NCBI GenBank assembly: GCA_016875225.1
Contig: VGRW01000004.1
Location: 7,111 to 71,110 of the forward strand
From: Deltaproteobacteria bacterium
Lineage (GTDB): Bacteria; Myxococcota_A; UBA9160; SZUA-336
Direction: 5' to 3'
Length of the DNA: 64,000 nt
Both the position numbers and the translations under genes were made by a program. Positions within the stretch are counted from its first letter, which is position 1, and each line of letters starts with the position of its first letter. Positions 22,497 through 33,024 of this stretch are shown here, piece by piece. The notes below the pieces were generated by a model. It saw nothing but the letters and a program-made list of their open reading frames with translations. It made no database searches and was not told the DNA's origin.

Positions 22497-23405
22497 GTGA
22501 CTGCGACTCGCGCGACGGATCGGCGCATTCCCGCGCTGCTCGTCTCGGGCTTTCTCGGCTCGGGCAAGACCACGCTCGTGCGAAATCTTCTCGCCGACGC
22601 GCGCGAGCGGGGGCTGCGCCTGGCGATCGTGTCGAACGAGTTCGGCGAGCTCGGGATCGACCGCGCGCTTCTGGGCGGAGGCGACGAGACCTTCGTGGAG
22701 CTCGGCGGGGGCTGCGTCTGCTGCCAGCTCTCCGACGAGCTGGTGGTCACGCTCGAGCGGCTGCGCGAGCGGATCGACCCGGATCGGATCGTGATCGAGA
22801 CCTCGGGCGTCGCGCTGCCCTACGACATCCAGCTCAACTTCTGGCGCGAGCCGGTGTCGCGCTGGATCGGCGACGACGTGACGGTGATCGTGGTGAACGC
22901 CGAGCAGCTCGAGAGCGGTCGCGATCTGGTCGGGACGTTCGAGGACCAGGTCTCGTCTGCGGATCTGATCGTGCTGAACAAGCTGGACCTCGTGCCCGAG
23001 GCGATCGTGCCCGAGCTCGAGGCCCGGCTCCGCGAGATCGAGCCCGACGCGCCGATCCTGCGCACGCGTCACGCAGCGGTGTCGCCCGAGCTGCTCTTCC
23101 CGCCCGAGCTCGAGCAGGCCGCGCGGGCGCGGCGAGCGCGCGCTTCCGGCGCCGCCCACAGCCACGAGGCGTTCGAGACCGACGTGATCGAGATCGAGCG
23201 CGGCCTGGGGCACGACGCGATCCTGCGCCGGATCGCCGCCGAGGGGGCGCTGCGCGCGAAGGGCTTCGTCGCGAGCGACGTCGGCCTTCGCGTCGTTCAG
23301 GGCGTGGGTGCGCGGATCGAGCTCTCGACCCCGCACTCGGCTCCTCCGGCCGAGCTGGTCGGGCGCGTGGTCGTGATCCGAAGAGGGCGCGCAGAGCGTG
23401 GCTAG
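22497..23405 (+). CDS. COG0523 (CobW/YjiA/ZigA-like) metallochaperone GTPase
   Basis: GFLGSGKTTL (Walker A), GGGCVCCQ (CxCC metal motif), ETSG, LNKLD. Start is the GTG at 22497, in frame with the 22230..23405 ORF. Upstream of that point the translation is Arg/Ala shadow sequence. Confidence 0.85.
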   Translation: MTATRATDRRIPALLVSGFLGSGKTTLVRNLLADARERGLRLAIVSNEFGELGIDRALLGGGDETFVELGGGCVCCQLSDELVVTLERLRERIDPDRIVIETSGVALPYDIQLNFWREPVSRWIGDDVTVIVVNAEQLESGRDLVGTFEDQVSSADLIVLNKLDLVPEAIVPELEARLREIEPDAPILRTRHAAVSPELLFPPELEQAARARRARASGAAHSHEAFETDVIEIERGLGHDAILRRIAAEGALRAKGFVASDVGLRVVQGVGARIELSTPHSAPPAELVGRVVVIRRGRAERG

Positions 23406-25965
23406 AGCCGCAGCGTCGATGCGCCTGGTCGATCTGGCCAGCCCGATCGGACGTCTGGACGCGGACGAGATCCTGGCCCGTTTCGTGGACTGGTCGAGCG
23501 AGCGCGGTCTGGTGCCGTACCCCGCGCAGGAGGAGGCGTTCCTGGAGCTCGTCGCGGGCAAGCACGTCGTGCTCTCGACGCCGACCGGCTCCGGCAAATC
23601 GCTCGTCGCAACGCTCCTCCACTTCAAGGCGATGTGCGAGGGGCGGCGCTCGTTCTACACCTCGCCCGTGAAGGCGCTGGTCAGCGAGAAGTTCTTCGCG
23701 CTCTGCCAGGACTTCGGGCCCGAGAACGTCGGCATGCTGACCGGCGACGCGAGCATCAACCCGGCCGCGCCGATCATCTGCTGCACGGCCGAGGTGCTCG
23801 CGAACATGGCGCTGCGCTCGGGCCCGGCGCTCGACGCCCCCTACGTGGTGATGGACGAGTTCCACTTCTACTCCGACGCGCAGCGCGGCGCGGCCTGGCA
23901 GGTGCCGCTTCTGCTGCTGCCGGACACCACGTTCCTGCTGATGTCGGCGACGCTCGGCGACACCCGCGAGATCCGGCGCGACCTCGAGCTGCGAAGCGGC
24001 CGCCCGGTCGCGCTGGTCGCCTCGAGCGAGCGGCCGGTGCCGCTCGACTACGCCTGGTGCGAGACTCCGCTGCACGAGACCGTGCAAGCGCTGCTCGAGT
24101 CGGGCAAGGCGCCGATCTACGTGGTCTCGTTCACGCAGCGCGAGGCAGCGGAGCTCGCGCAGGCGCTGACCAGCCTGAACGTGACCTCGCGCGCGGAGCG
24201 ACTCGAGATCGGCGCGGCACTCGGAGACTTCGAGTTCGACACCGCCTACGGCAAGGAGCTGTCGCGGATCGTGCGCGCGGGCATCGGGATCCACCACGCG
24301 GGTCTGCTGCCGAAGTACCGCCTGCGGGTCGAGCAGCTGGCGCAGCAGGGGCTGCTCAAGGTCATCTCCGGCACCGACACGCTCGGCGTCGGCGTGAACA
24401 TCCCGATCCGGACCGTGCTCTTCACCAAGCTCGCCAAGTTCGACGGGCGGCGCGTCGGCGCGCTCTCGGTGCGCGAGTTCCGGCAGATCAGCGGTCGAGC
24501 CGGACGCAAGGGCTTCGACGAGCACGGCAGCGTCGTGTGTCAGGCGCCGGAGCACGTGATCGAGAACAAGCGCATGCGCGAGCGCTCGTCGAAGCCGGGC
24601 GGAAAGAAGCGCAAGCGCGAGGTGACCCGGAAGCCGCCGCCCGGCTTCGTCGGCTGGAGCGAGGAGAGCTTCGAGCGGCTGATCGAGCGCGTCCCGGAGC
24701 CGCTCGTCTCGCGCTTCCGCGTCAGTCACGGGATGATCCTGCTCCTGCTGCGCCGGGCCGAGGACGACCCCGATCCGCGCGGCGGCTGGCGCGCGGTCGC
24801 GGACCTGATCGCCCGCAGCCACGAGAGCGAGGCTCGCAAGCGGCGCATCCTGCGCGAGGCCGCGCAGCTGTTTCGGGGCCTGCGCGCTGCGGACATCGTG
24901 AGGGTCGAGCGCGACGCGGCGACGGGGCGACGCCGGGTCCGCGTCGCCGACGATCTGCAGTGGGGTTTCTCGCTCCACCACGCGCTCTCGCTCTACGTGG
25001 TCGAGGCGATCTCGTACATCGAGGCGCGCGACGAGGCGTTCGCGTTCGAGGTGCTCTCGCTCGTCGAAGCCGTGCTCGAGGATCCCCGCGCGATCCTGTT
25101 TCGGCAGCTCGACCGGGTCAAGAGCGAGCTCTTCGCTCGGCTCAAGGCGGAGGGCGTGCCCTACGAGGAGCGCATTCGCAGGCTCGAGGAGGTGCAGCCG
25201 CCCGCGCCGAGTCGAGACTTCATCGAGCAGACCTTCGACCTCTTCGCGCGCCGCCACCCCTGGGTGCGCCACCAGGACGTCCACCCGAAGTCGATCGCGC
25301 GCGAGATGTACGAGGGATATTTCAGCTTCGACCACTACGTGCGCTTCTACGGGCTGCAGCGCAGCGAAGGGCTGCTGCTTCGCTACGTCTCGCAGGTCTA
25401 CGACACGATCGTGCAGACGGTTCCCGAGGGCGCGAAGACCGAGGCCGTTCACGACCTGATCGCGTACTTCCGGACCATGCTCGAGCGCGTCGACTCGAGC
25501 CTGGTCGACGAGTGGGAGCGGCTCCTGAATCCCGCCGCGCGCACGGCCGACGCCGCGCCGGCTCCCATGCCGACGCGCGTCTACGACCTCGCGCGGGACG
25601 AGCGGGCGCTTCGCGCACGGGCTCGCGCCGAGCTGCACCGACTGGTCCGCGCGCTCGCCGAGCGCGACTGGGCGGAGGCGTGCGCGTGCGTGCGCGCGGA
25701 TCCCGAAGACCCGTGGACTCCCGAGCGCTTCGAGCGCGCGCTGGCGGCCTTCTTCGCGCAGCACGGCGAGCTCGTGTTCTCGCAGGCGGCGCGCCACTCC
25801 GAGTGGACCCGGATCCGCCCGGATGGCCCGCGCCGCTGGGCCGTCACGCAGGTCCTGCTCGACCCCTCCGACGAGAACGACTGGTTCATCGCGGGCGAGA
25901 TCGACCTCGCGCTCGAGACCGAGCCGGTCGGCCCGCTGCTTCGGCTGCGGACGATCGGGAGCTAG
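23398..25965 (+). CDS. Ski2-like DEAD/DEAH-box helicase with long C-terminal domain (DUF3516-type architecture)
   Basis: STPTGSGKS, MDEFHF, MSATLG, HHAGLLPKYR, GTDTLGVGVNIP, QISGRAGRKG. About 400 aa of helical C-terminal region. The GTG start overlaps the COG0523 gene by 8 nt. An ATG at 23419 is an alternative start. Confidence 0.85.
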   Translation: MARAAASMRLVDLASPIGRLDADEILARFVDWSSERGLVPYPAQEEAFLELVAGKHVVLSTPTGSGKSLVATLLHFKAMCEGRRSFYTSPVKALVSEKFFALCQDFGPENVGMLTGDASINPAAPIICCTAEVLANMALRSGPALDAPYVVMDEFHFYSDAQRGAAWQVPLLLLPDTTFLLMSATLGDTREIRRDLELRSGRPVALVASSERPVPLDYAWCETPLHETVQALLESGKAPIYVVSFTQREAAELAQALTSLNVTSRAERLEIGAALGDFEFDTAYGKELSRIVRAGIGIHHAGLLPKYRLRVEQLAQQGLLKVISGTDTLGVGVNIPIRTVLFTKLAKFDGRRVGALSVREFRQISGRAGRKGFDEHGSVVCQAPEHVIENKRMRERSSKPGGKKRKREVTRKPPPGFVGWSEESFERLIERVPEPLVSRFRVSHGMILLLLRRAEDDPDPRGGWRAVADLIARSHESEARKRRILREAAQLFRGLRAADIVRVERDAATGRRRVRVADDLQWGFSLHHALSLYVVEAISYIEARDEAFAFEVLSLVEAVLEDPRAILFRQLDRVKSELFARLKAEGVPYEERIRRLEEVQPPAPSRDFIEQTFDLFARRHPWVRHQDVHPKSIAREMYEGYFSFDHYVRFYGLQRSEGLLLRYVSQVYDTIVQTVPEGAKTEAVHDLIAYFRTMLERVDSSLVDEWERLLNPAARTADAAPAPMPTRVYDLARDERALRARARAELHRLVRALAERDWAEACACVRADPEDPWTPERFERALAAFFAQHGELVFSQAARHSEWTRIRPDGPRRWAVTQVLLDPSDENDWFIAGEIDLALETEPVGPLLRLRTIGS

Positions 25966-26590
25966 CCTGCTTCGCTCCCGCCCAGCTGCAGATCGGGCAG
26001 ATCGCGGGGTCGTGCCCGCGCGCGGGACAGTGCTCGCGCCCGAAATGGACCAGCTGGAGATGGCGGCGGATCCAATCCTTCTCGGGAAAGACCGCCTTCA
26101 GGTCGCGCTCGGTCTCCACCACGTTCCTGCCGCTCGACAGGCCGAAGCGCTCGGCCAGGCGGTGGATGTGCGTGTCGACCGCGAACGCGGGCACGCCGAA
26201 GCCCTGCGACATCACGATGCTCGCGGACTTGTGGCCGACGCCGGGCAGGGCCTCGAGCGCCGCGAAATCCCTCGGCACCTCTCCCGCGTGGCGCTCGATC
26301 AGGAGCTTCGAGAGCTCGTGGATGTTCCGCGACTTCGCCGGGGCCAGCCCGCAGGAGCGGATGATCTCGTAGATCGCGGGGACGCCGAGCGCGAGCATCG
26401 CCTGTGGGGTGCGCGCGCGCGCGAACAGCACTCGCGTCACCTGGTTCACGCGCACGTCCGTGCACTGCGCGGAGAGCACGACCGCGATCAGCAGCGTGTA
26501 CGGATCGCGGTACGAGAGCGGGACCTCCGGCATCGGGTAGAGCGAGTCGAGGATCTCGCCGATCCGCTTCGCCTTCTCGGCGCGCGTCAT
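25886..26590 (-). CDS. nth: endonuclease III family DNA glycosylase with atypical Fe-S loop
   Basis: MTRAEKAKRIGEILDSLYP..., SAQCTDVRVN, HhH-GPD (LPGVGHKSASIVM...VDTHIHR). The start was set by frame arithmetic (234 aa plus stop) and overlaps the hemH stop (ATGA). The C-terminal cluster loop reads HCPARGHDPAICPIC, with only 3 Cys. Confidence 0.85.
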   Translation of the reverse strand: MTRAEKAKRIGEILDSLYPMPEVPLSYRDPYTLLIAVVLSAQCTDVRVNQVTRVLFARARTPQAMLALGVPAIYEIIRSCGLAPAKSRNIHELSKLLIERHAGEVPRDFAALEALPGVGHKSASIVMSQGFGVPAFAVDTHIHRLAERFGLSSGRNVVETERDLKAVFPEKDWIRRHLQLVHFGREHCPARGHDPAICPICSWAGAKQASSRSSAAEAAGRPARSRARGRSRPR

Positions 26591-27624
26591 CGCGAAGCGC
26601 CCCGGACCCGGGACGCGACGTAGCGCACGAACGCCGGATGCGCGTTCGCGCACGGCACCAGCTCCAAGGCCTCGCCTCCGAGCGAGCGCCACTGCGCGGC
26701 TCCGCGCAGCCCGATCTCCTCCAGCGTCTCGAGGCAGTCGGCGACGAAGGACGGGCAGAGTACCGCCAGCCGCGCAACACCGGCACGTGCCAGCTCCGGC
26801 AGCGCGGCGTCGGTGTGCGGCGTGATCCACGGCGTGCGGCCGAGCCGCGACTGGAACGAGGTCGAGCAGCCCTCGGGCCGAAGCGCGAGCGCCGCGGCGA
26901 GCGCCCGCGAGGTCGCGTAGCACTGCGCGCGGTAGCAGTGGCGATTGGCGGCGCCGATCGCGTCGCAGCAGCTGGCCGACGCCAGACAGTGTCGTCCGCT
27001 CGTGTCGCTCTTCCGCACCTGCCGCTCCGGCAGGCCGTGATAGCTGAACAGCACGTGGTCGGGGCGAAACGCGTCGAGCCGCGGCTTCGCGATCTCGGCG
27101 AGCGCCGCGATGAATCCGGGCTCGTCGAAGAACTCGGGCAGTGTCTCGAGTGCGGGCACGTTCCAGCGCTCGGCGACGAGCCCGTGAATTCGCGCGAGCG
27201 CGGAGCCGGTCGACGACGATGCGTACTGCGGAAAGAGCGGCACGACCAGGATCCGCGCCAGATCGTGGCGCAGCAGCTCGTCCAGCGCGCGCGGCAGAGA
27301 CGGCTCGCCGTAACGCATTCCGAGCGCGACTTCGAAGTCGGCCCCGAGCTCGGCCGCGACCGCCGCGCGCAGATCCTGGCCGTTCGAGAGCAGCGGAGAG
27401 CCTCGCTTGGTCCAGACTGCTCGGTACGCCTCGGCCGAGCGCGGCGCCCGAAACGGCGCGATCACCGCGTTCACGAGCAGAAAGCGCGGCAGCGCGGGGA
27501 TGTCCAGCACGCGCGGATCGGAGAGGAACTCGCGCAGATACCGCCGCACGTCTCGCGAGGAGGGCGATCTCGGCGTGCCAAGATTCACGAGCAGCACGCC
27601 CGACCGCGTCGTCGCTTGATCCAC
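26587..27624 (-). CDS. hemH: ferrochelatase with internal Cys-rich insert
   Basis: GVLLVNLGTP, YLREFLSDPRV, LFPQYASSSTGS, FSYHGLP and the C-terminal CPSFVADCLETLEEI pattern. Internal insert: CLASASCCDAIGAANRHCYRAQC. Confidence 0.9.
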   Translation of the reverse strand: MDQATTRSGVLLVNLGTPRSPSSRDVRRYLREFLSDPRVLDIPALPRFLLVNAVIAPFRAPRSAEAYRAVWTKRGSPLLSNGQDLRAAVAAELGADFEVALGMRYGEPSLPRALDELLRHDLARILVVPLFPQYASSSTGSALARIHGLVAERWNVPALETLPEFFDEPGFIAALAEIAKPRLDAFRPDHVLFSYHGLPERQVRKSDTSGRHCLASASCCDAIGAANRHCYRAQCYATSRALAAALALRPEGCSTSFQSRLGRTPWITPHTDAALPELARAGVARLAVLCPSFVADCLETLEEIGLRGAAQWRSLGGEALELVPCANAHPAFVRYVASRVRGASR

Positions 27625-27668: not shown

Positions 27669-27926
27669 TCAGGGCGCGAGCGTCTCGAGCTCGTCGATCG
27701 CGTGAACGGGCGCGTCGTCGCCCTTCATCAGATGGGCGATCGCGCTGAAGACGAGCCGCTGCTTCGCGAGCGTGTTCTTGCCGGCGAAGGCGCTCGAGAC
27801 CACGCGGATCGAGAAGTGCCCGCCGCTGCCGCGGACCTCGAGCGAGTCGCAGGGCAGGGCGGCCGAGAGCGCCTGGCGGATCTTCTCGATCACCTCGCTC
27901 GGGGGCGCATGGATCTGCAGGGCCAC
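27669..27926 (-). CDS. bolA: BolA-family protein
   Basis: 85 aa with a GTG start. GSGGHFSIRVVSSAFAGKNTLAKQRLV...VHAIDEL matches the BolA fold, with the loop His and the C-terminal (I/V)HA motif. Confidence 0.8.
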   Translation of the reverse strand: MALQIHAPPSEVIEKIRQALSAALPCDSLEVRGSGGHFSIRVVSSAFAGKNTLAKQRLVFSAIAHLMKGDDAPVHAIDELETLAP

Positions 27927-27942: not shown

Positions 27943-28872
27943 TCAGTACCGCGGCACGGACGCGTCGACCTCGCGCGACCACGCGTCGATTCCGCCCGCC
28001 AGGTTGTGGACGTTGGTGAAGCCGCGACTCGCGAAATGCTCGGCCGCCGCCTGGCTTCGGCCGCCGTGGTGGCAGTGGAAGACGATCAGCGCGTCCTTCG
28101 GGAGGCGCTCGATCTGCTCGGCGACCCGGGCATCGACCAGCGTCGCCTGGGCGATGCGCGCCTTCTGGTGCTCCTCTGGCGTGCGCACGTCGTAGAGGTG
28201 CAGGTCTCGTCCCGAGGCGATCAGGGCCTGGAGCTGGCTCGCGGAGAGCTGATTCACCTCGGCCGCGCGCGGCGCGTTCGGGTTCTCGACGGTGAGCGCC
28301 TGGCTGCCGCCCGAGTCGGCCGCGCCGATCACGAGCCCGTTGGCTCGTCGTGCAGAATCGCGATCGAAGAGAATCGTGAGGCCGTTGCTCGTGGCCGCGA
28401 CCTCGTGCCCCGCGCGCGGCCCGAGCGAGAGCGAGTGCTGGAACGACGCGTCGATCGAGACGTGCAGCTCGCCTCCCTCGCTCGCGATCACTCCGCGCAA
28501 GAGCTCCGCGGCAGCGTCTGTCACGGTCACCGCGGGCGGCTCGACGGTCTCCACCTCGACACCCAGGAGCTTTTGCAGGTCACCGCTGGCGTAGAGCTCC
28601 TTCACGATGTCGCAGCCGCCCTGGAACTCGCCCTCGACGTAGAGCTGCGGAATGGTCGGCCAGCTCGAGAACTCCTTGATCGCCTCGCGCACCTCGCGGT
28701 CCGAGAGCACGTCGAAGCTTCCGTATTCGGGAAGCAGCTGGCCGAGGATTCCGACGACCTGGGCCGAGAAGCCGCACTGGGGGGCGTCGGGCGTGCCCTT
28801 CATGAATAGAACCACGCGGTCCGAGCGGATGATCGATTCGATTCGCTCGCGCAGCGCAGGGTCGAGGCTCAT
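27943..28872 (-). CDS. tri-domain fusion: monothiol glutaredoxin (CGFS) / Cys-less A-type-carrier-like domain / rhodanese
   Basis: Start is the ATG at 28872 (MSLDPALRERI..., RBS GAGGGAGA). The track's upstream extension overlaps tRNA-Glu and two promoter-like sites. Grx4 motifs: VVLFMKGTPDAPQCGFS, WPTIPQLYVEGEFQGGCDI. Middle domain, HesB/IscA-like but without Cys: VTVTDAAAELLRGV...LHVSID...GLTILFDRDSARRANGLVI...ENPNA. Rhodanese loop: FHCHHGGRS. Confidence 0.85.
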   Translation of the reverse strand: MSLDPALRERIESIIRSDRVVLFMKGTPDAPQCGFSAQVVGILGQLLPEYGSFDVLSDREVREAIKEFSSWPTIPQLYVEGEFQGGCDIVKELYASGDLQKLLGVEVETVEPPAVTVTDAAAELLRGVIASEGGELHVSIDASFQHSLSLGPRAGHEVAATSNGLTILFDRDSARRANGLVIGAADSGGSQALTVENPNAPRAAEVNQLSASQLQALIASGRDLHLYDVRTPEEHQKARIAQATLVDARVAEQIERLPKDALIVFHCHHGGRSQAAAEHFASRGFTNVHNLAGGIDAWSREVDASVPRY

Positions 28873-28900: not shown

Positions 28901-28928
28901 ACGATACGATTCCGTACGAAGCGGTCAA
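28901..28928 (-). promoter_or_regulatory. putative sigma70-type promoter of the grx-fusion operon
   Basis: On the minus strand: TTGACC (28928..28923), 16-nt spacer, TATCGT (28906..28901). It sits about 30 nt upstream of the ATG at 28872. Confidence 0.45.
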
Positions 28929-29017: not shown

Positions 29018-29095
29018 GACCCCATCGTCTAGCTTGGCCCAGGACACCGGCCTTTCACGCCGAGAACGCGGGTTCGAATCCCGCTGGGGTCGCCA
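29018..29095 (+). tRNA. tRNA-Glu: tRNA-Glu (anticodon UUC), CCA encoded
   Basis: Hand-folded cloverleaf: acceptor GACCCCA/TGGGGTC (7 bp), D arm GTCT...GGAC, anticodon stem CCGGC/GCCGA (one C-A mismatch) with loop CTTTCAC, T arm GCGGG-TTCGAAT-CCCGC, discriminator G plus CCA. As I recall it, closely resembles E. coli tRNA-Glu. Confidence 0.9.
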
Positions 29096-29395
29096 GCGCG
29101 CAGGACCGAAAGAAAAGTCGCGCAAAAGCTCAAGTCAGGGTCGCCATTCCCGGATGACCGGGCTAGACTGCGGCACGATTGGCGTCGATCGGTCGACGCA
29201 CCGCTCTGGTTGATCCCTAAGCAGTGATTCGAACCGCTCGTCGGCCCGTCCTGCCGCATGTCGGGGCCCGATCCCCCGTGTGTCGTGCAGCAACAGTAAT
29301 CGCATCTCTTCAGCGCCGGAACGTGTCCGGCTCGAAGCGGGGCGAGGGACGTGCCCGAGGACGGAATTGAACGGGTCACGTACGGGAACCATCAG

Positions 29396-29743
29396 TTGGG
29401 TAAGAAGCTTTACGTAGGGAACCTTCCATTCTCCACCGACGAGGCCGAGCTCCGCGAGCTCTTCGAGCCGCATGGGGAGCTGGCTTCGGTCAGTGTGATC
29501 ATGGACCGCGACACGGGTCGCCCGCGCGGATTCGCGTTCGTCGAGTTCGAGGACGCGAACAGCGCCGCGAAGGCGCGCCAAGCTCTCGACGGGCGTGAGC
29601 TCGGCGGTCGCACGATGCGCGTCAGCGAGGCCAACGAGCGCGGCCCCGGTGGCGGCGGCGGCGGTGGGCGCAGCGGCGGCGGTGGCGGCGGTGGCGGTGG
29701 CGGCGGTGGCCGCGGCGGCTACGGCGGCGGGGGCCGGCGCTAA
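29396..29743 (+). CDS. glycine-rich RRM-type RNA-binding protein
   Basis: RNP2 (KLYVGNL) and RNP1 (RGFAFVEF), with a C-terminal RGG/poly-Gly tail. I prefer the TTG at 29396 ((M)GKKLYVGNL, the usual N-terminus for this family). The track ORF starts at the GTG at 29351. Confidence 0.85.
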   Translation: MGKKLYVGNLPFSTDEAELRELFEPHGELASVSVIMDRDTGRPRGFAFVEFEDANSAAKARQALDGRELGGRTMRVSEANERGPGGGGGGGRSGGGGGGGGGGGGRGGYGGGGRR

Positions 29744-29863: not shown

Positions 29864-30514
29864 CTAGGCGCGCATTCCTCCGGCCTTCGCTACCGGGTGC
29901 AGGCTGGACTCGGCGCTCGGCCGCTTGCCGACGCGCTCGAACCAGGCCAACACGTTCTTGTGTTCGGCCTTGAGCGGCTGCCCCACGGCCGCGCCGAAAT
30001 CCGTGAGCGCGTAGAGGACGATGTCGGCCAGCGAGAACCGGCTGCCGCAGATCCACTGCTTGCCGTCGAGCTGGGCATCCAGCCAGCCCAGGCCCTCCTG
30101 CGCGAGCAGCTTCAGGTCGGCGGCGGCGTGCGGGATCGTGCGCATGCGGTCCTTGAACATCGCCAGCCCCTCGGCGAAGCGGAAGCCGTCGGCGAGCGGG
30201 ACCGTGATCTTCAGCTCGACGCGGCGCGTCCACATCCGCGTCTCCGCCTTCTCCTCGGCGGTTCGCCCGATCAGCGGCGGATTCGGGTTCTTGTCTTCCA
30301 GGTACTCGCAGATCGGAACCGTCTCCGCGAGGACGAAGCCGTTGTCGAGCTCGAGCGCGGGCAGCTGTCCGGCCGGGTTCTTGTCGGTGTAGGGCGGGCG
30401 CCGGTTCGCTCCGCTCATCAGGTCGACCTGCTCCGCAGGGATCGTGATTCCCTTCTCGATCATGAACATGCGGACCAGACGGGGATTCGGACCAAGTGAG
30501 TCGTAGAACTTCAC
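29864..30514 (-). CDS. glutathione S-transferase family protein
   Basis: GTG at 30514, preceded by AGGAGA. N-terminal thioredoxin-like KFYDSLGPNPRLVRMFMIEKGI...NPAGQLPALELDNGFVLAETVPICEYLE, and a C-terminal helical domain (FSLADIVLYALTDF). Confidence 0.8.
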   Translation of the reverse strand: MKFYDSLGPNPRLVRMFMIEKGITIPAEQVDLMSGANRRPPYTDKNPAGQLPALELDNGFVLAETVPICEYLEDKNPNPPLIGRTAEEKAETRMWTRRVELKITVPLADGFRFAEGLAMFKDRMRTIPHAAADLKLLAQEGLGWLDAQLDGKQWICGSRFSLADIVLYALTDFGAAVGQPLKAEHKNVLAWFERVGKRPSAESSLHPVAKAGGMRA

Positions 30515-30678
30515 GGGGATCTCCTGTTCGAGGTCCGCGCAGCATATCACGCAGACCCCCGCCGACCCCCGGCTCTGCCGTGTGAATCCCGAGCTCCGAG
30601 GACGCGCTGCGGAGTCTGTGTATGATACGCGCGCGGAGGGGCCCCGATGGACGACTGGCGCATGCGTAGGCCGCGCGC

Positions 30679-33024
30679 GTGAGCGCGCTCGTCACGATCG
30701 TCGCCGCGCCGTTCGTCGCAGCTCTCGCGATCGCGCTGCTCGGTCGTGCGCTCGGGCGCTGGTCGGCGCTGCTGATGGTCGCAGCAGCGGGTGTCTCGTT
30801 TGCGACGGCGCTGCCACTTCTCGGCGCCGAGACCGCGCCGGTATCGAGCCACGAATGGATTCCGTCGCTCGGCGTGGCCTTCCTGCTGCGCGCCGACGGG
30901 TTCGGGGCGTTCTTCGCGCTGCTCGTGTCGGGGATCGGAGTTCTCGTCGGCGTGTATTCGCTCGGCTACATCGGGGCCGAGCTCGGTCGGGCGCGCATCG
31001 GCCGCTACTACGCGGCACTCACCGCTTTCATGGGCGCGATGCTCGGGATCGCCCTCGCGGACGACTTGATCCTGCTGTTCCTGTTCTGGGAGATCACCAG
31101 CGTCACGTCGTACCTCCTGATCGGCTTCTGGTACGAGCGCGAGGCCGCGCGTGCGGGCGCGCTGACCGCACTTCTCGTCACGGCGATGGGCGGCCTTGCG
31201 ATGCTGGCCGGGTTCATCTTGATCGGGCTGGCGACGGGGTCGTTCGCGCTCGGCGAGATCGTCGCGGACGAAGCGCGCCGCTCTGCGCTCGCGAGCTCGC
31301 CCATGTTCCTGCCCGCGCTTCTGCTCGTCCTGGCGGGAGCCTTCACCAAGTCGGCGCAGGTCCCGTTCCACTTCTGGCTGCCCGGCGCGATGGTCGCGCC
31401 GACGCCGATCTCGACTTACCTGCACTCCGCGACCATGGTGAAGGCGGGCATCTTCCTGCTCGCGCGCGTCACGCCGCTCTTTGCCGACTCGGCCGCCTGG
31501 CCGCTGCTCGTGGCGCCGGTCGGACTCGCGACCTTCTTGCTGGGCGCCTGGCACGCATTCCGCCAGAACGATCTGAAGGCGCTGCTCGCGTACAGCACGG
31601 TCTCGACGCTGGGGCTGGTCACGCTCGCCTACGGCCTGCGCATGCCCGAGCAGGACGCGCTGCAGATCCTCTCGCATGCCGGCTACAAGGGGGGGCTGTT
31701 CATGATCGCGGGCATCGTCGAACACGCGACCGGCACGCGCGATCTGCGCGAGCTCGGCGGGCTGCGCCGGCGGCTTCCGATCAGCTTCGCGCTCTGCTTG
31801 CTCTTCGCGCTCTCGATGGGCGGAATTCCGCCGCTGTTCGGTTTCGTCACGAAGGAGGCGCTCTACGCATCGCTGATCGAGAGCCCCACGCTTGCGGGAT
31901 CGCCGCTCGCGCACGGGGCGGTGATCGCGGCGGTGGTGGTCGGAAACGCATTCCTGCTCGCGGCCGTGCTGAAGCTGCTGATCGGGACGTTCCTCGGCAG
32001 CGAGCCCGCGGCCCATTCCCACGACGCGCACGGCGCGCATTCCGGCCACGGAGAGAGCGCGGCGCTCTGGCTGCCTCCCGCAGTGCTCGCGCTCGGCAGT
32101 CTCGTTCTCGGCCTGCTGGGCGAGAGCAGCGCGATCGAGCGCGCGGCGAATCTGCTCTCGTCGGCGCCGGACGCGGGGCTCGAGGTCTCGCTGCTGCCGG
32201 CGCATCTCGGTCCGGTGCTGCTCTCACTGGCCGGGATCGGGCTCGGCGTGGCGCTGTACCGCGGACGGTCGCGCGTCGAGGCGCTCCAGCGCGGCCTCGG
32301 CATGTTTCCCGACGCGCAGGCGGTCTGGAACCGCTGCGTCGCGAGCGTGACCGGCTTTGCCGAGGCCTACAGCGAATGGTGGCAGGACGGGTCGCTGCGC
32401 TGGTACTTTTCGGTGATCCTGCTCTTCGCGGCGGGGATCAGCCTGTTCGCGCTCGAGGCCGGTGGGGTGTCGCTCGCTCACGTGGAGGTCGAGCTCGGCA
32501 ACCTCGGCTGGCCCGCGATCGGGCTGGCGGCGCTCATCCTCGCCTCGACCATCGCGGTCGTCCGCTCCGAGACGCGTCTGGGTGCCGCGCTCGCGCTCAC
32601 CGCCAGCGGCTTCCTGGTGGCGCTGGTCTACGCCGTCTACCAATCGCCCGACATCCTGCTGACCCAGATTCTGATCGAGACCGTGTCGACGGTCGTGATC
32701 CTGCTGGTGCTCTACTACATGCCCACCTTCCGGCGCGATGGCCTGTCGCCGGCGCAGAGCGCCTGGAACCTGGCGGTCTCGGGCGCGATCGGCTTCGTGG
32801 TGTTCCTCTTCGTGCTGCTCGCGACCAGCCCGAGCTTCAAGGAGACGCGAAACCTCGGCTTGGACTACCTCGCGCGCAGCGTGGGCGAGGCCGGCGGTCG
32901 CAATGCGGTGAACGTCATCATCGTCGACTTCCGCGCCATCGACACGCTCGGTGAAGTCACCGTTCTGGTCGTGGTCGGACTCTGCGTCTTCGGACTGCTT
33001 CGCGCGCGCAGGGTGGACGGCTGA
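30679..33024 (+). CDS. mrpA: Na+/H+ antiporter Mrp/Mnh subunit A (NuoL-like)
   Basis: 781 aa and polytopic. NuoL/MnhA motifs: WEITSVTSYLLIGFW, SAQVPFHFWLPGAMVAPTPISTYLHSATMVKAGIFLLAR. Confidence 0.9.
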   Translation: MSALVTIVAAPFVAALAIALLGRALGRWSALLMVAAAGVSFATALPLLGAETAPVSSHEWIPSLGVAFLLRADGFGAFFALLVSGIGVLVGVYSLGYIGAELGRARIGRYYAALTAFMGAMLGIALADDLILLFLFWEITSVTSYLLIGFWYEREAARAGALTALLVTAMGGLAMLAGFILIGLATGSFALGEIVADEARRSALASSPMFLPALLLVLAGAFTKSAQVPFHFWLPGAMVAPTPISTYLHSATMVKAGIFLLARVTPLFADSAAWPLLVAPVGLATFLLGAWHAFRQNDLKALLAYSTVSTLGLVTLAYGLRMPEQDALQILSHAGYKGGLFMIAGIVEHATGTRDLRELGGLRRRLPISFALCLLFALSMGGIPPLFGFVTKEALYASLIESPTLAGSPLAHGAVIAAVVVGNAFLLAAVLKLLIGTFLGSEPAAHSHDAHGAHSGHGESAALWLPPAVLALGSLVLGLLGESSAIERAANLLSSAPDAGLEVSLLPAHLGPVLLSLAGIGLGVALYRGRSRVEALQRGLGMFPDAQAVWNRCVASVTGFAEAYSEWWQDGSLRWYFSVILLFAAGISLFALEAGGVSLAHVEVELGNLGWPAIGLAALILASTIAVVRSETRLGAALALTASGFLVALVYAVYQSPDILLTQILIETVSTVVILLVLYYMPTFRRDGLSPAQSAWNLAVSGAIGFVVFLFVLLATSPSFKETRNLGLDYLARSVGEAGGRNAVNVIIVDFRAIDTLGEVTVLVVVGLCVFGLLRARRVDG

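Follow-up and report, generated by a model that had tools for sequence, protein, structure and literature searches.

A GrxD-type monothiol glutaredoxin fused to a cysteine-less A-type-carrier-like domain and a rhodanese, encoded beside bolA in a deltaproteobacterial genome

The 64,000-nucleotide (nt) stretch of DNA analyzed here, which we call the window, comes from contig VGRW01000004.1 of assembly GCA_016875225.1, a genome assigned to a Deltaproteobacteria bacterium. Its reverse strand encodes a 309-amino-acid (aa) protein in which three domains follow one another: a monothiol glutaredoxin (Grx) with a CGFS active site, a degenerate domain resembling the A-type carriers (ATC) of iron-sulfur (Fe-S) clusters but without any cysteine (ATC*), and a single-domain rhodanese (Rhd). 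The next gene on the same strand is bolA, followed by genes for a ferrochelatase and an endonuclease III homolog (Table 1). As a system it is not of a new kind. Each of its three domains is known, their combination has been catalogued before, and the Grx-ATC*-Rhd protein is a GrxD-type carrier with ATC* and rhodanese add-ons. Residue numbers below refer to the full protein, with Met1 counted.

Table 1. The Grx-ATC*-Rhd gene, its domains and its neighbors in the window
Feature	Coordinates	Strand	Remarks
Grx-ATC*-Rhd fusion gene	27943..28872	-	309-aa protein (open reading frame and translation); stop codon 27943..27945
Class II (CGFS, Grx4/Grx5-type) monothiol glutaredoxin domain	28561..28872	-	Residues 1-104
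Cys33-Gly-Phe-Ser codons	28765..28776	-	Active site of the Grx domain
Degenerate, cysteine-less A-type-carrier-like (ATC*) domain	28270..28536	-	Residues 113-201; ends in ENPNAP
His137 and Asp141 codons	about 28450..28464	-	Middle domain
Single-domain rhodanese	27946..28257	-	Residues 206-309; conserved C terminus ...VPRY
Active-site loop Cys267-His-His-Gly-Gly-Arg-Ser	28054..28074	-	Rhodanese domain
Sigma-70-like promoter match TTGACC-16-TATCGT	28901..28928	-	29 nt upstream of the start codon
tRNA-Glu(UUC)	29018..29095	+	Directly upstream of the fusion gene, opposite strand
bolA	27669..27926	-	85 aa, IbaG/YrbA-like; follows the fusion gene at 16 nt; likely co-transcribed with it as a partner
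hemH (ferrochelatase)	26587..27624	-	44 nt after bolA; Pfam 313 bits, TIGR00109 230 bits
nth (endonuclease III family)	25886..26590	-	4-nt overlap with the hemH stop; ends the same-strand run
DEAD/DUF3516 helicase	23398..25965	+	855-aa open reading frame
Small RRM-domain RNA-binding protein	29351..29743	+	RRM_1 87.5 bits; long Gly/Arg-rich C-terminal tail
Glutathione S-transferase gene	29864..30550	-	Near the fusion gene
Mrp/Mnh-type cation:proton antiporter subunit genes	30679..33024 and onward	+	Beyond the glutathione S-transferase gene

The translated reading frame is identical to the sequence quoted in a preliminary description of this DNA, which had been made from the letters alone. A longer frame, opening with an ATG at 29025, overlaps the tRNA-Glu(UUC) gene, and all aligned homologs (25/25) begin at MSLD..., so we take the ATG at 28872 to be the real start. 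The promoter-like site upstream of it, a consensus match only, is the sole one between 25500 and 29600, where shuffled sequences contained on average 0.1. The GC content is uniform (~0.70) between 24 and 32 kb of the window, and we rejected a foreign origin of the locus on that ground. The preliminary description had raised the possibility that a sequencing or assembly frameshift had artificially joined separate genes, and had called for a check across the domain junctions. That explanation is refuted, with practically no probability left to it: in three lake-water metagenome runs, each assembled independently, contigs of 17.3, 8.6 and 2.9 kb (depth 5-23x) span the complete gene with no difference and no gap, one open frame is conserved end to end in homologs, and full-length homologs populate >120 protein clusters and at least 60 genomes, the complete chromosomes of Xanthomonas and Sorangium among them.

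Judged by its sequence, the N-terminal domain is a class II Grx with every cluster- and glutathione (GSH)-binding feature. Pfam Glutaredoxin matches residues 20-83 with 59.6 bits (cut-off 22.9), and NCBIfam TIGR00365, the equivalog model of the Grx4 family, matches residues 8-103 with 130.5 bits (cut-off 117.1). The motifs KGTPDAPQC33GFS, WPTIPQ and GGCD are all present. Among 26 diverse homologs, no substitution occurs at K25, C33, G34, F35, S36, W71, P72, T73, P75, G85, G86, C87 or D88, and Ile74 of WPTIPQ is almost invariant. We also generated an AlphaFold2 (AF2) model of the full-length protein, with a mean predicted local distance difference test score (pLDDT) of 91.9 and a predicted template-modeling score (pTM) of 0.59. 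In Foldseek searches with this model, the Grx domain superposes on 2mma, 3gx8, 3ipz, 2wul and 2wci_B, that is, on GrxS14, Grx5, GLRX5 and E. coli Grx4, with TMt values of 0.83-0.93 and an RMSD of 0.9-1.4 Å. The complete Grx4/Grx5-type domain named in the preliminary description is thus borne out by a TIGR00365 match above cut-off, an intact CGFS and a template-modeling score (TM) of ~0.9 to Grx5 and GrxS14. The first 104 residues of the fusion have the CGFS, WP and GGCD motifs and the fold in common with mitochondrial Grx5, plant GrxS14 and the GrxD (Grx4) that E. coli has together with BolA/IbaG; in contrast to these proteins, the fusion carries ~205 extra C-terminal residues, made up of ATC* and the rhodanese.

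The identity of the middle domain is less apparent from a standard domain scan. Pfam Fe-S_biosyn (PF01521) aligns with residues 115-203 over profile positions 3-105 of 110, with 17.6-22 bits, which is below its cut-off of 26.3. The same model matches 25/26 full-length family members and 17/17 excised middle domains (best E-value 1.3e-8). When searched against PDB sequences, a profile of the middle domain retrieved A-type carriers only, with HI1723 first (6e-8), followed by Aq_1857 and IscA. Modeled in isolation (AF2, pLDDT 85.9), the domain has IscA, SufA, HI1723, DsrR, Aq_1857 or HesB-like structures as all of its top 11 Foldseek matches, the best of them with a TM of 0.73-0.77. These comparisons of sequence profiles and folds make a convincing case for homology to A-type carriers, although the window protein itself stays below the PF01521 cut-off. 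The domain scan called for by the preliminary description therefore gives Glutaredoxin and Rhodanese above their Pfam cut-offs, with the middle assignment secured by profile and fold.

ATC* has the fold of IscA, SufA and ErpA and follows their sequence pattern up to NPNA, but it is without all three of their ligand cysteines. In the alignment, a deletion removes the GGCSG loop and with it the first ligand, and the domain stops at NPNAP, short of the CGC ligands; the cysteine count of residues 105-205 is 0, as is that of the middle domain in 39/45 tri-domain members. Since all three cluster-ligand cysteines are missing, this is a degenerate ATC* and no functional A-type carrier, and the cysteine-less HesB/IscA-pattern domain of the preliminary description stands on profile, fold and family-wide PF01521 matches. 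Its comparison with the degenerate ATC* of NfuA holds in part. Both are degenerate A-type domains without cysteines, and in both proteins such a domain, a targeting adaptor in NfuA, is fused to a cluster-binding carrier domain (PMC8593673). In the fusion, however, a Grx takes the place of Nfu (the protein has no Pfam match to a NifU/Nfu domain), ATC* stands in the middle and a rhodanese is added. Nor does a derivation from the NfuA N-domain seem to hold: hhalign pairs the middle-domain profile much more strongly with ErpA (probability 96%, E 1.4e-9) than with the NfuA N-domain (16%, E 1.6e-3), which points to an independent degeneration of an ErpA/IscA-type carrier, separate from that of NfuA, although this ranking is a lead only, as the E. 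coli sequences were entered by hand. Another parallel is DsrR of Allochromatium vinosum, an IscA fold without cysteines in a sulfur-trafficking context, which is among the fold matches of ATC* (2k4z, E 1e-4). DsrR, however, is a stand-alone protein of the dsr operon, and there are no dsr genes at the fusion locus.

Two residues of the middle domain attracted attention in the alignments. His137 is invariant in 26 sequences, yet it is H in 28/45 and R in 11/45 members of a wider sample, and we rejected it as a conserved extra metal ligand. Asp141, which sits where the first cysteine loop of IscA would begin, is D in 41/45 tri-domain proteins and in 7/9 proteins composed of Grx and ATC*, but in only 4/15 composed of ATC* and Rhd, and thus tracks with the presence of the Grx.

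As for the C-terminal domain, Pfam Rhodanese (PF00581) matches residues 210-300 with 62.4 bits (cut-off 22.2), covering profile positions 1-101 of 102. Its closest PDB sequences include 6mxv (7.8e-12) and GlpE (1.2e-7), Cys267 aligns with the active-site cysteine of 6mxv and 3tp9, and C-H-H-G-x-R-S is invariant in 26 diverse homologs. The single-domain rhodanese with an intact CHHGGRS loop proposed in the preliminary description is therefore well founded. In NCBIfam, the best models match in part and represent the C-terminal rhodanese domain of MoeB/MoeZ, a class that accepts persulfide from cysteine desulfurases. Like GlpE and the C-terminal rhodanese domains of MoeB, MoeZ and Uba4, to which it is related by sequence and fold matches, the domain presents its catalytic cysteine in a loop of sulfurtransferase length; it differs from them in standing behind Grx-ATC*, in its own CHHGxRS signature and ...VPRY end, and in the absence of an adenylyltransferase domain.

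A Grx joined to a rhodanese fold could also suggest an arsenate reductase or phosphatase of the Acr2/Cdc25 type with its reductant built in, since enzymes of the Acr2 type are built on a rhodanese fold and work with Grx and GSH. The active-site loop argues otherwise. CHHGGR(S) is a six-residue loop of the sulfurtransferase type, of the same length as CYHGNS(S) in GlpE and unlike the longer, seven-residue CX5R loop of Cdc25 and Acr2. The sequence matches are to sulfurtransferases, the Grx is of the CGFS class rather than a dithiol (CPYC) reductase, and no ars genes lie nearby. We rejected this alternative as highly improbable.

The preliminary description had supposed the architecture to be undescribed and had called for a survey of its phylogenetic distribution, which shows it to be common. 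The best 120 matches in a collection of 5.8 billion proteins are all 291-320 aa long, with query coverage of 95-100% and identities ranging from 96% to 52%, and at 90% identity the tri-domain proteins form >120 clusters. Screening a single genome of each species located the full-length architecture at no fewer than 60 loci, including the complete chromosomes of Xanthomonas phaseoli and Sorangium cellulosum. The protein occurs in Myxococcota (Polyangiaceae, Nannocystineae, Sorangium, Labilithrix, Sandaracinus), across Xanthomonadales/Lysobacterales (Xanthomonas, Stenotrophomonas, Lysobacter, Luteimonas, Thermomonas, Arenimonas, Dyella, Rhodanobacter, Luteibacter and others) and in some other Gammaproteobacteria, for example Marinicella. 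Far from being undescribed, it is widespread, catalogued under generic names and probably on record since 2009. One cluster, that of Xanthomonas, already comprises 345 sequences, which go by the names "Grx4 family monothiol glutaredoxin," "Probable monothiol glutaredoxin 2" or "glutaredoxin."

The earlier record is a domain-combination survey by Alves et al., whose domains were assigned by the Domain Fishing server and PROSITE and which lists, for bacteria, a CGFS Grx joined to "frataxin" and a rhodanese in a triple fusion (PMC2679010). In that fusion the rhodanese cysteine is conserved and the non-Grx pair behaves as a cassette (PMC2679010). It resembles our protein in all of these points, the cassette recalling ATC*-Rhd, but differs in that its third domain is called frataxin and its domain order is written differently (PMC2679010). 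We looked for frataxin in the middle domain and rejected it on three grounds, namely Pfam (0/26 members match the frataxin model at E <= 1), hhalign (probability of 0.2% against a CyaY sequence entered by hand) and the fold search (none of the 50 listed matches of the middle-domain model is a frataxin). The "frataxin-rhodanese-GRX" fusion of 2009 is probably the Grx-ATC*-Rhd family with a mislabelled middle domain. The supplement sequences of that study that we examined have no rhodanese or frataxin labels and no CHHGGRS or NPNAP strings, and represent Xanthomonas and Sorangium by single-domain CGFS proteins only. The alignments of the study do include a separate single-domain CGFS Grx from Xanthomonas campestris (Q8P7V8) and from Sorangium cellulosum (A9GFE2) (PMC2679010). 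The fusion thus coexists with a stand-alone CGFS Grx at least in these two genera, unlike a GrxD, and is therefore an additional, specialized paralog there.

Conservation of the gene neighborhood singles out bolA. The product of this gene matches Pfam BolA with 42.7 bits and has Xanthomonas XC975 (1.2e-8) and YrbA/IbaG as its best PDB matches, in agreement with the adjacent BolA of the preliminary description. It has the conserved C-terminal His, that of VHAI, which aligns with "iHAl" in XC975 and BOLA1. Relatives at 73-83% identity keep the fusion gene and bolA as a pair, with a gap of 9-16 nt, and at no fewer than 13 more distant loci of myxobacterial type, including genes of the two-domain Grx-ATC* form, the gene directly downstream is again bolA. 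All-against-all clustering of neighbors at 61 loci and Pfam scans of flanking open reading frames (ORFs) show bolA to be the sole conserved neighbor. We rejected a conserved third partner, as the candidates reflect just lineage synteny (a polysaccharide deacetylase and aminotransferases by Pfam, a DUF924-like ORF by eye), and across this neighborhood survey the flanking ORFs include no Fe-S gene other than bolA.

Downstream of bolA, the window hemH encodes a ferrochelatase with an internal Cys-rich insert, C213-X5-C219C220-X9-C230-X4-C235, whose cysteines are invariant in two relatives. This insert fits the internal-insertion class of [2Fe-2S] motifs described for ferrochelatases of the Myxococcus xanthus type (PMC8529089). 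The nth product passes TIGR01083 with 218.9 bits against a cut-off of 211.7. In close relatives, two hydrolase genes stand between bolA and hemH, with hemH-nth still within ~3 kb, and hemH is absent from 80 more distant loci. Being linked to the pair only in the window and, more loosely, in close relatives, hemH and nth were rejected as conserved operon partners; possibly they are clients of the fusion system, rather than its parts.

The proximity of hemH could be taken as the sign of a complex that senses iron status, of the Grx3/4-Fra2(BolA) type, which would tune hemH or other targets and in which the rhodanese would be a redox- or sulfur-sensing input. The conserved pairing of Grx and BolA genes fits such a role, as does the position of hemH, directly after bolA in the window and close by in the nearest relatives. 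Neither the protein nor its conserved neighbor, however, has a DNA-binding or signaling output domain, the proximity of hemH is confined to one clade, and Xanthomonadales members are without both neighbors. We consider such a regulatory role decidedly unlikely.

What is chiefly new in the family lies in the modules with which ATC* is combined: the cysteine-less ATC* domain is a recurring hub among fusion architectures. We exhaustively searched 1.84 billion representatives with a hidden Markov model (HMM) of ATC* and classified the best 150 matches by family-specific HMMs, Pfam and end-of-protein checks. The profile matched 603 proteins at E <= 1e-3, 169 of them at E <= 1e-10. Among the best 150 there are ~32 Grx-ATC*-Rhd representatives, ~9 complete Grx-ATC* proteins of 204-212 aa that end directly after NPNAP, and ~15 complete ATC*-Rhd proteins of 192-218 aa ending in ...PRY. 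In addition, we found ATC*-ATC-Nfu (P0126, P0159), Grx-ATC*-ATC-Nfu (P0202, 427 aa, with an N-terminal CGFS Grx) and ATC*-DUF59/FeS_assembly_P (P0161, P0212), all five on short metagenomic contigs. In P0126 and P0202, sister proteins of the family, ATC* precedes an ATC-Nfu unit, a further parallel to NfuA, and we found no description of the ATC*-Nfu and ATC*-DUF59 architectures in the literature searched. The shared ATC* signature consists of P113, A121, D170, G179 and N197-P198-N199-x-P201. With the exception of the rhodanese, all fusion partners of ATC* are established Fe-S trafficking modules.

The shorter forms are supported by their genomic context. Grx-ATC* genes in two Polyangiaceae-type metagenome-assembled genomes (L059, 5998..6615; L060, 6001..6609) stop after an NPN(A/E)P-equivalent motif and are followed by bolA, so some myxobacterial lineages either lost the rhodanese or never acquired it, yet retain the link to BolA. 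Conversely, the DNA upstream of ATC*-Rhd is non-coding in L085 and L087, which are therefore genuine genes without a Grx. Several other candidates were discarded. A supposed Grx-ATC* protein from Bosea (L076) is a stand-alone Grx whose longer tblastn match is spurious, and P0189, which starts at the edge of its contig, is more likely a fragment than an independent ATC*-Rhd gene. P0141, P0160 and P0191, which might have passed for new architectures, were treated as mis-called genes, with Arg/Pro-rich, out-of-frame-looking tails in which no domain is supported save for one partial HSP70 match in P0141.

That the ATC*-Rhd cassette stands alone, without a Grx, in the ~15 complete representatives speaks for a different view of the protein, in which the rhodanese is the catalytic core of an enzyme acting on sulfane sulfur (persulfide), for example a sulfurtransferase for thiosulfate:glutathione or glutathione persulfide (GSSH). 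The Grx would then give a glutathione-binding site or resolve Cys267-SSG/-SSH, and ATC* would be a scaffold by analogy with DsrR. Also in line with this view are the presence of DsrR among the fold matches of the middle domain and that of glutathione S-transferase genes, one near the window gene and another adjoining the ATC*-Rhd gene of L087. Against it, adjacency to a glutathione S-transferase gene is not conserved and bolA is the sole neighbor that is, ATC* is also fused to Nfu and DUF59 modules, and the Grx has all features of class II, the cluster-transfer type, and passes the Grx4 equivalog model, class II Grxs being poor oxidoreductases. On balance, a persulfide enzyme strikes us as unlikely, if plausible.

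The interpretation that we favor, at somewhat better than even, is that the fusion is an auxiliary protein of Fe-S cluster trafficking, a GrxD/Grx4 paralog with two built-in accessory modules. GrxD binds a GSH-ligated [2Fe-2S] cluster, and from its family membership the Grx domain of the fusion would do likewise via Cys33, holding the cluster in a homodimer or, together with the IbaG-type BolA, in a heterodimer. Heterodimers of GrxD with BolA/IbaG hold a shared [2Fe-2S] cluster, NfuA targets apo-proteins by its degenerate A-type domain (PMC8593673), and GrxD passes clusters to the A-type carrier ErpA (PMC11327457). ATC*, to judge from the modules with which it is combined, would be a protein-protein adaptor that keeps the IscA/ErpA fold but is unable to bind a cluster; it might pair with a true A-type carrier, making the GrxD-to-ErpA route physical, or dock apo-clients as in NfuA. 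The rhodanese, in turn, would carry on Cys267 a persulfide obtained from cysteine desulfurase, thiosulfate or glutathione persulfide, and this persulfide might serve as a source of new or replacement sulfide when the Grx-bound cluster, or that of a client, is built or repaired, which is the least certain step. The continuation of the same-strand run into a ferrochelatase with a [2Fe-2S] insertion motif and an Nth homolog is consistent with a trafficking function.

Several points weigh against this interpretation. Rhodaneses are not known to have an established part in the function of bacterial Fe-S carriers, and we found no functional study of any Grx-ATC*-Rhd member in the open-access literature searched. 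The AF2 model does not define the placement of Cys33 relative to Cys267, its pTM being only 0.59 despite a pLDDT of 91.9. Linkage to hemH-nth is not conserved beyond close relatives, and Xanthomonadales members have neither bolA nor an Fe-S gene within their ~6-kb flanks. Finally, the rhodanese is missing in Grx-ATC* lineages and the Grx in ATC*-Rhd lineages, so the three activities need not share one substrate. Because the rhodanese is dispensable in Grx-ATC* lineages and the geometry between domains is undefined, a sulfur-relay role of the rhodanese is much less certain than the general role in Fe-S trafficking.

A bolder combination of these ideas, which we regard as quite unlikely, would make Grx-ATC*-Rhd and BolA together a compact and partly self-sufficient device for the assembly or repair of [2Fe-2S] clusters. 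The persulfide, reduced by GSH in the Grx site, would deliver sulfide directly to the site of the Grx-bound cluster, bypassing the ISC/SUF scaffolds, and ATC* would hand the cluster to ErpA-type carriers or to clients such as the [2Fe-2S] ferrochelatase. In a broader version, ATC* would be a general plug-in adaptor that wires Grx, Nfu, DUF59/SufT-like and rhodanese modules into alternative routes of Fe-S delivery.

Most of what is known about Fe-S trafficking in bacteria comes from E. coli, in which GrxD, BolA/IbaG, NfuA and ErpA are individual proteins and their partnerships had to be established by biochemistry. A natural fusion of a GrxD-type carrier with an ErpA-like docking domain supports the route from GrxD to an A-type carrier, and the fusion adds a rhodanese, a domain without an accepted place in bacterial Fe-S delivery. 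As the fusion is found in the genetically tractable Xanthomonas and Stenotrophomonas beside a stand-alone GrxD, its role is directly testable. Two questions could thereby be answered: whether sulfur from a rhodanese enters cluster delivery or repair, and what degenerate A-type domains recognize.

Some features of the surrounding genes deserve mention. The C-terminal cluster loop of E. coli Nth reads C-X6-C-X2-C-X5-C. The window Nth has C186-X9-C196-X2-C199 with no fourth Cys downstream, an arrangement conserved in relatives L081 and L083, and the fourth ligand of its cluster may be a residue other than Cys or may be located elsewhere. In the same two relatives (L081, 16112..16930; L083, 16074..16927), genes for a cobW-family metallochaperone GTPase and a DEAD/DUF3516 helicase flank hemH-nth. 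On the other side of the fusion gene, the gene for the RRM-domain protein is kept at the same position in L081, and in this syntenic relative the run of antiporter genes matches Proton_antipo_M, MnhB and Oxidored_q2.

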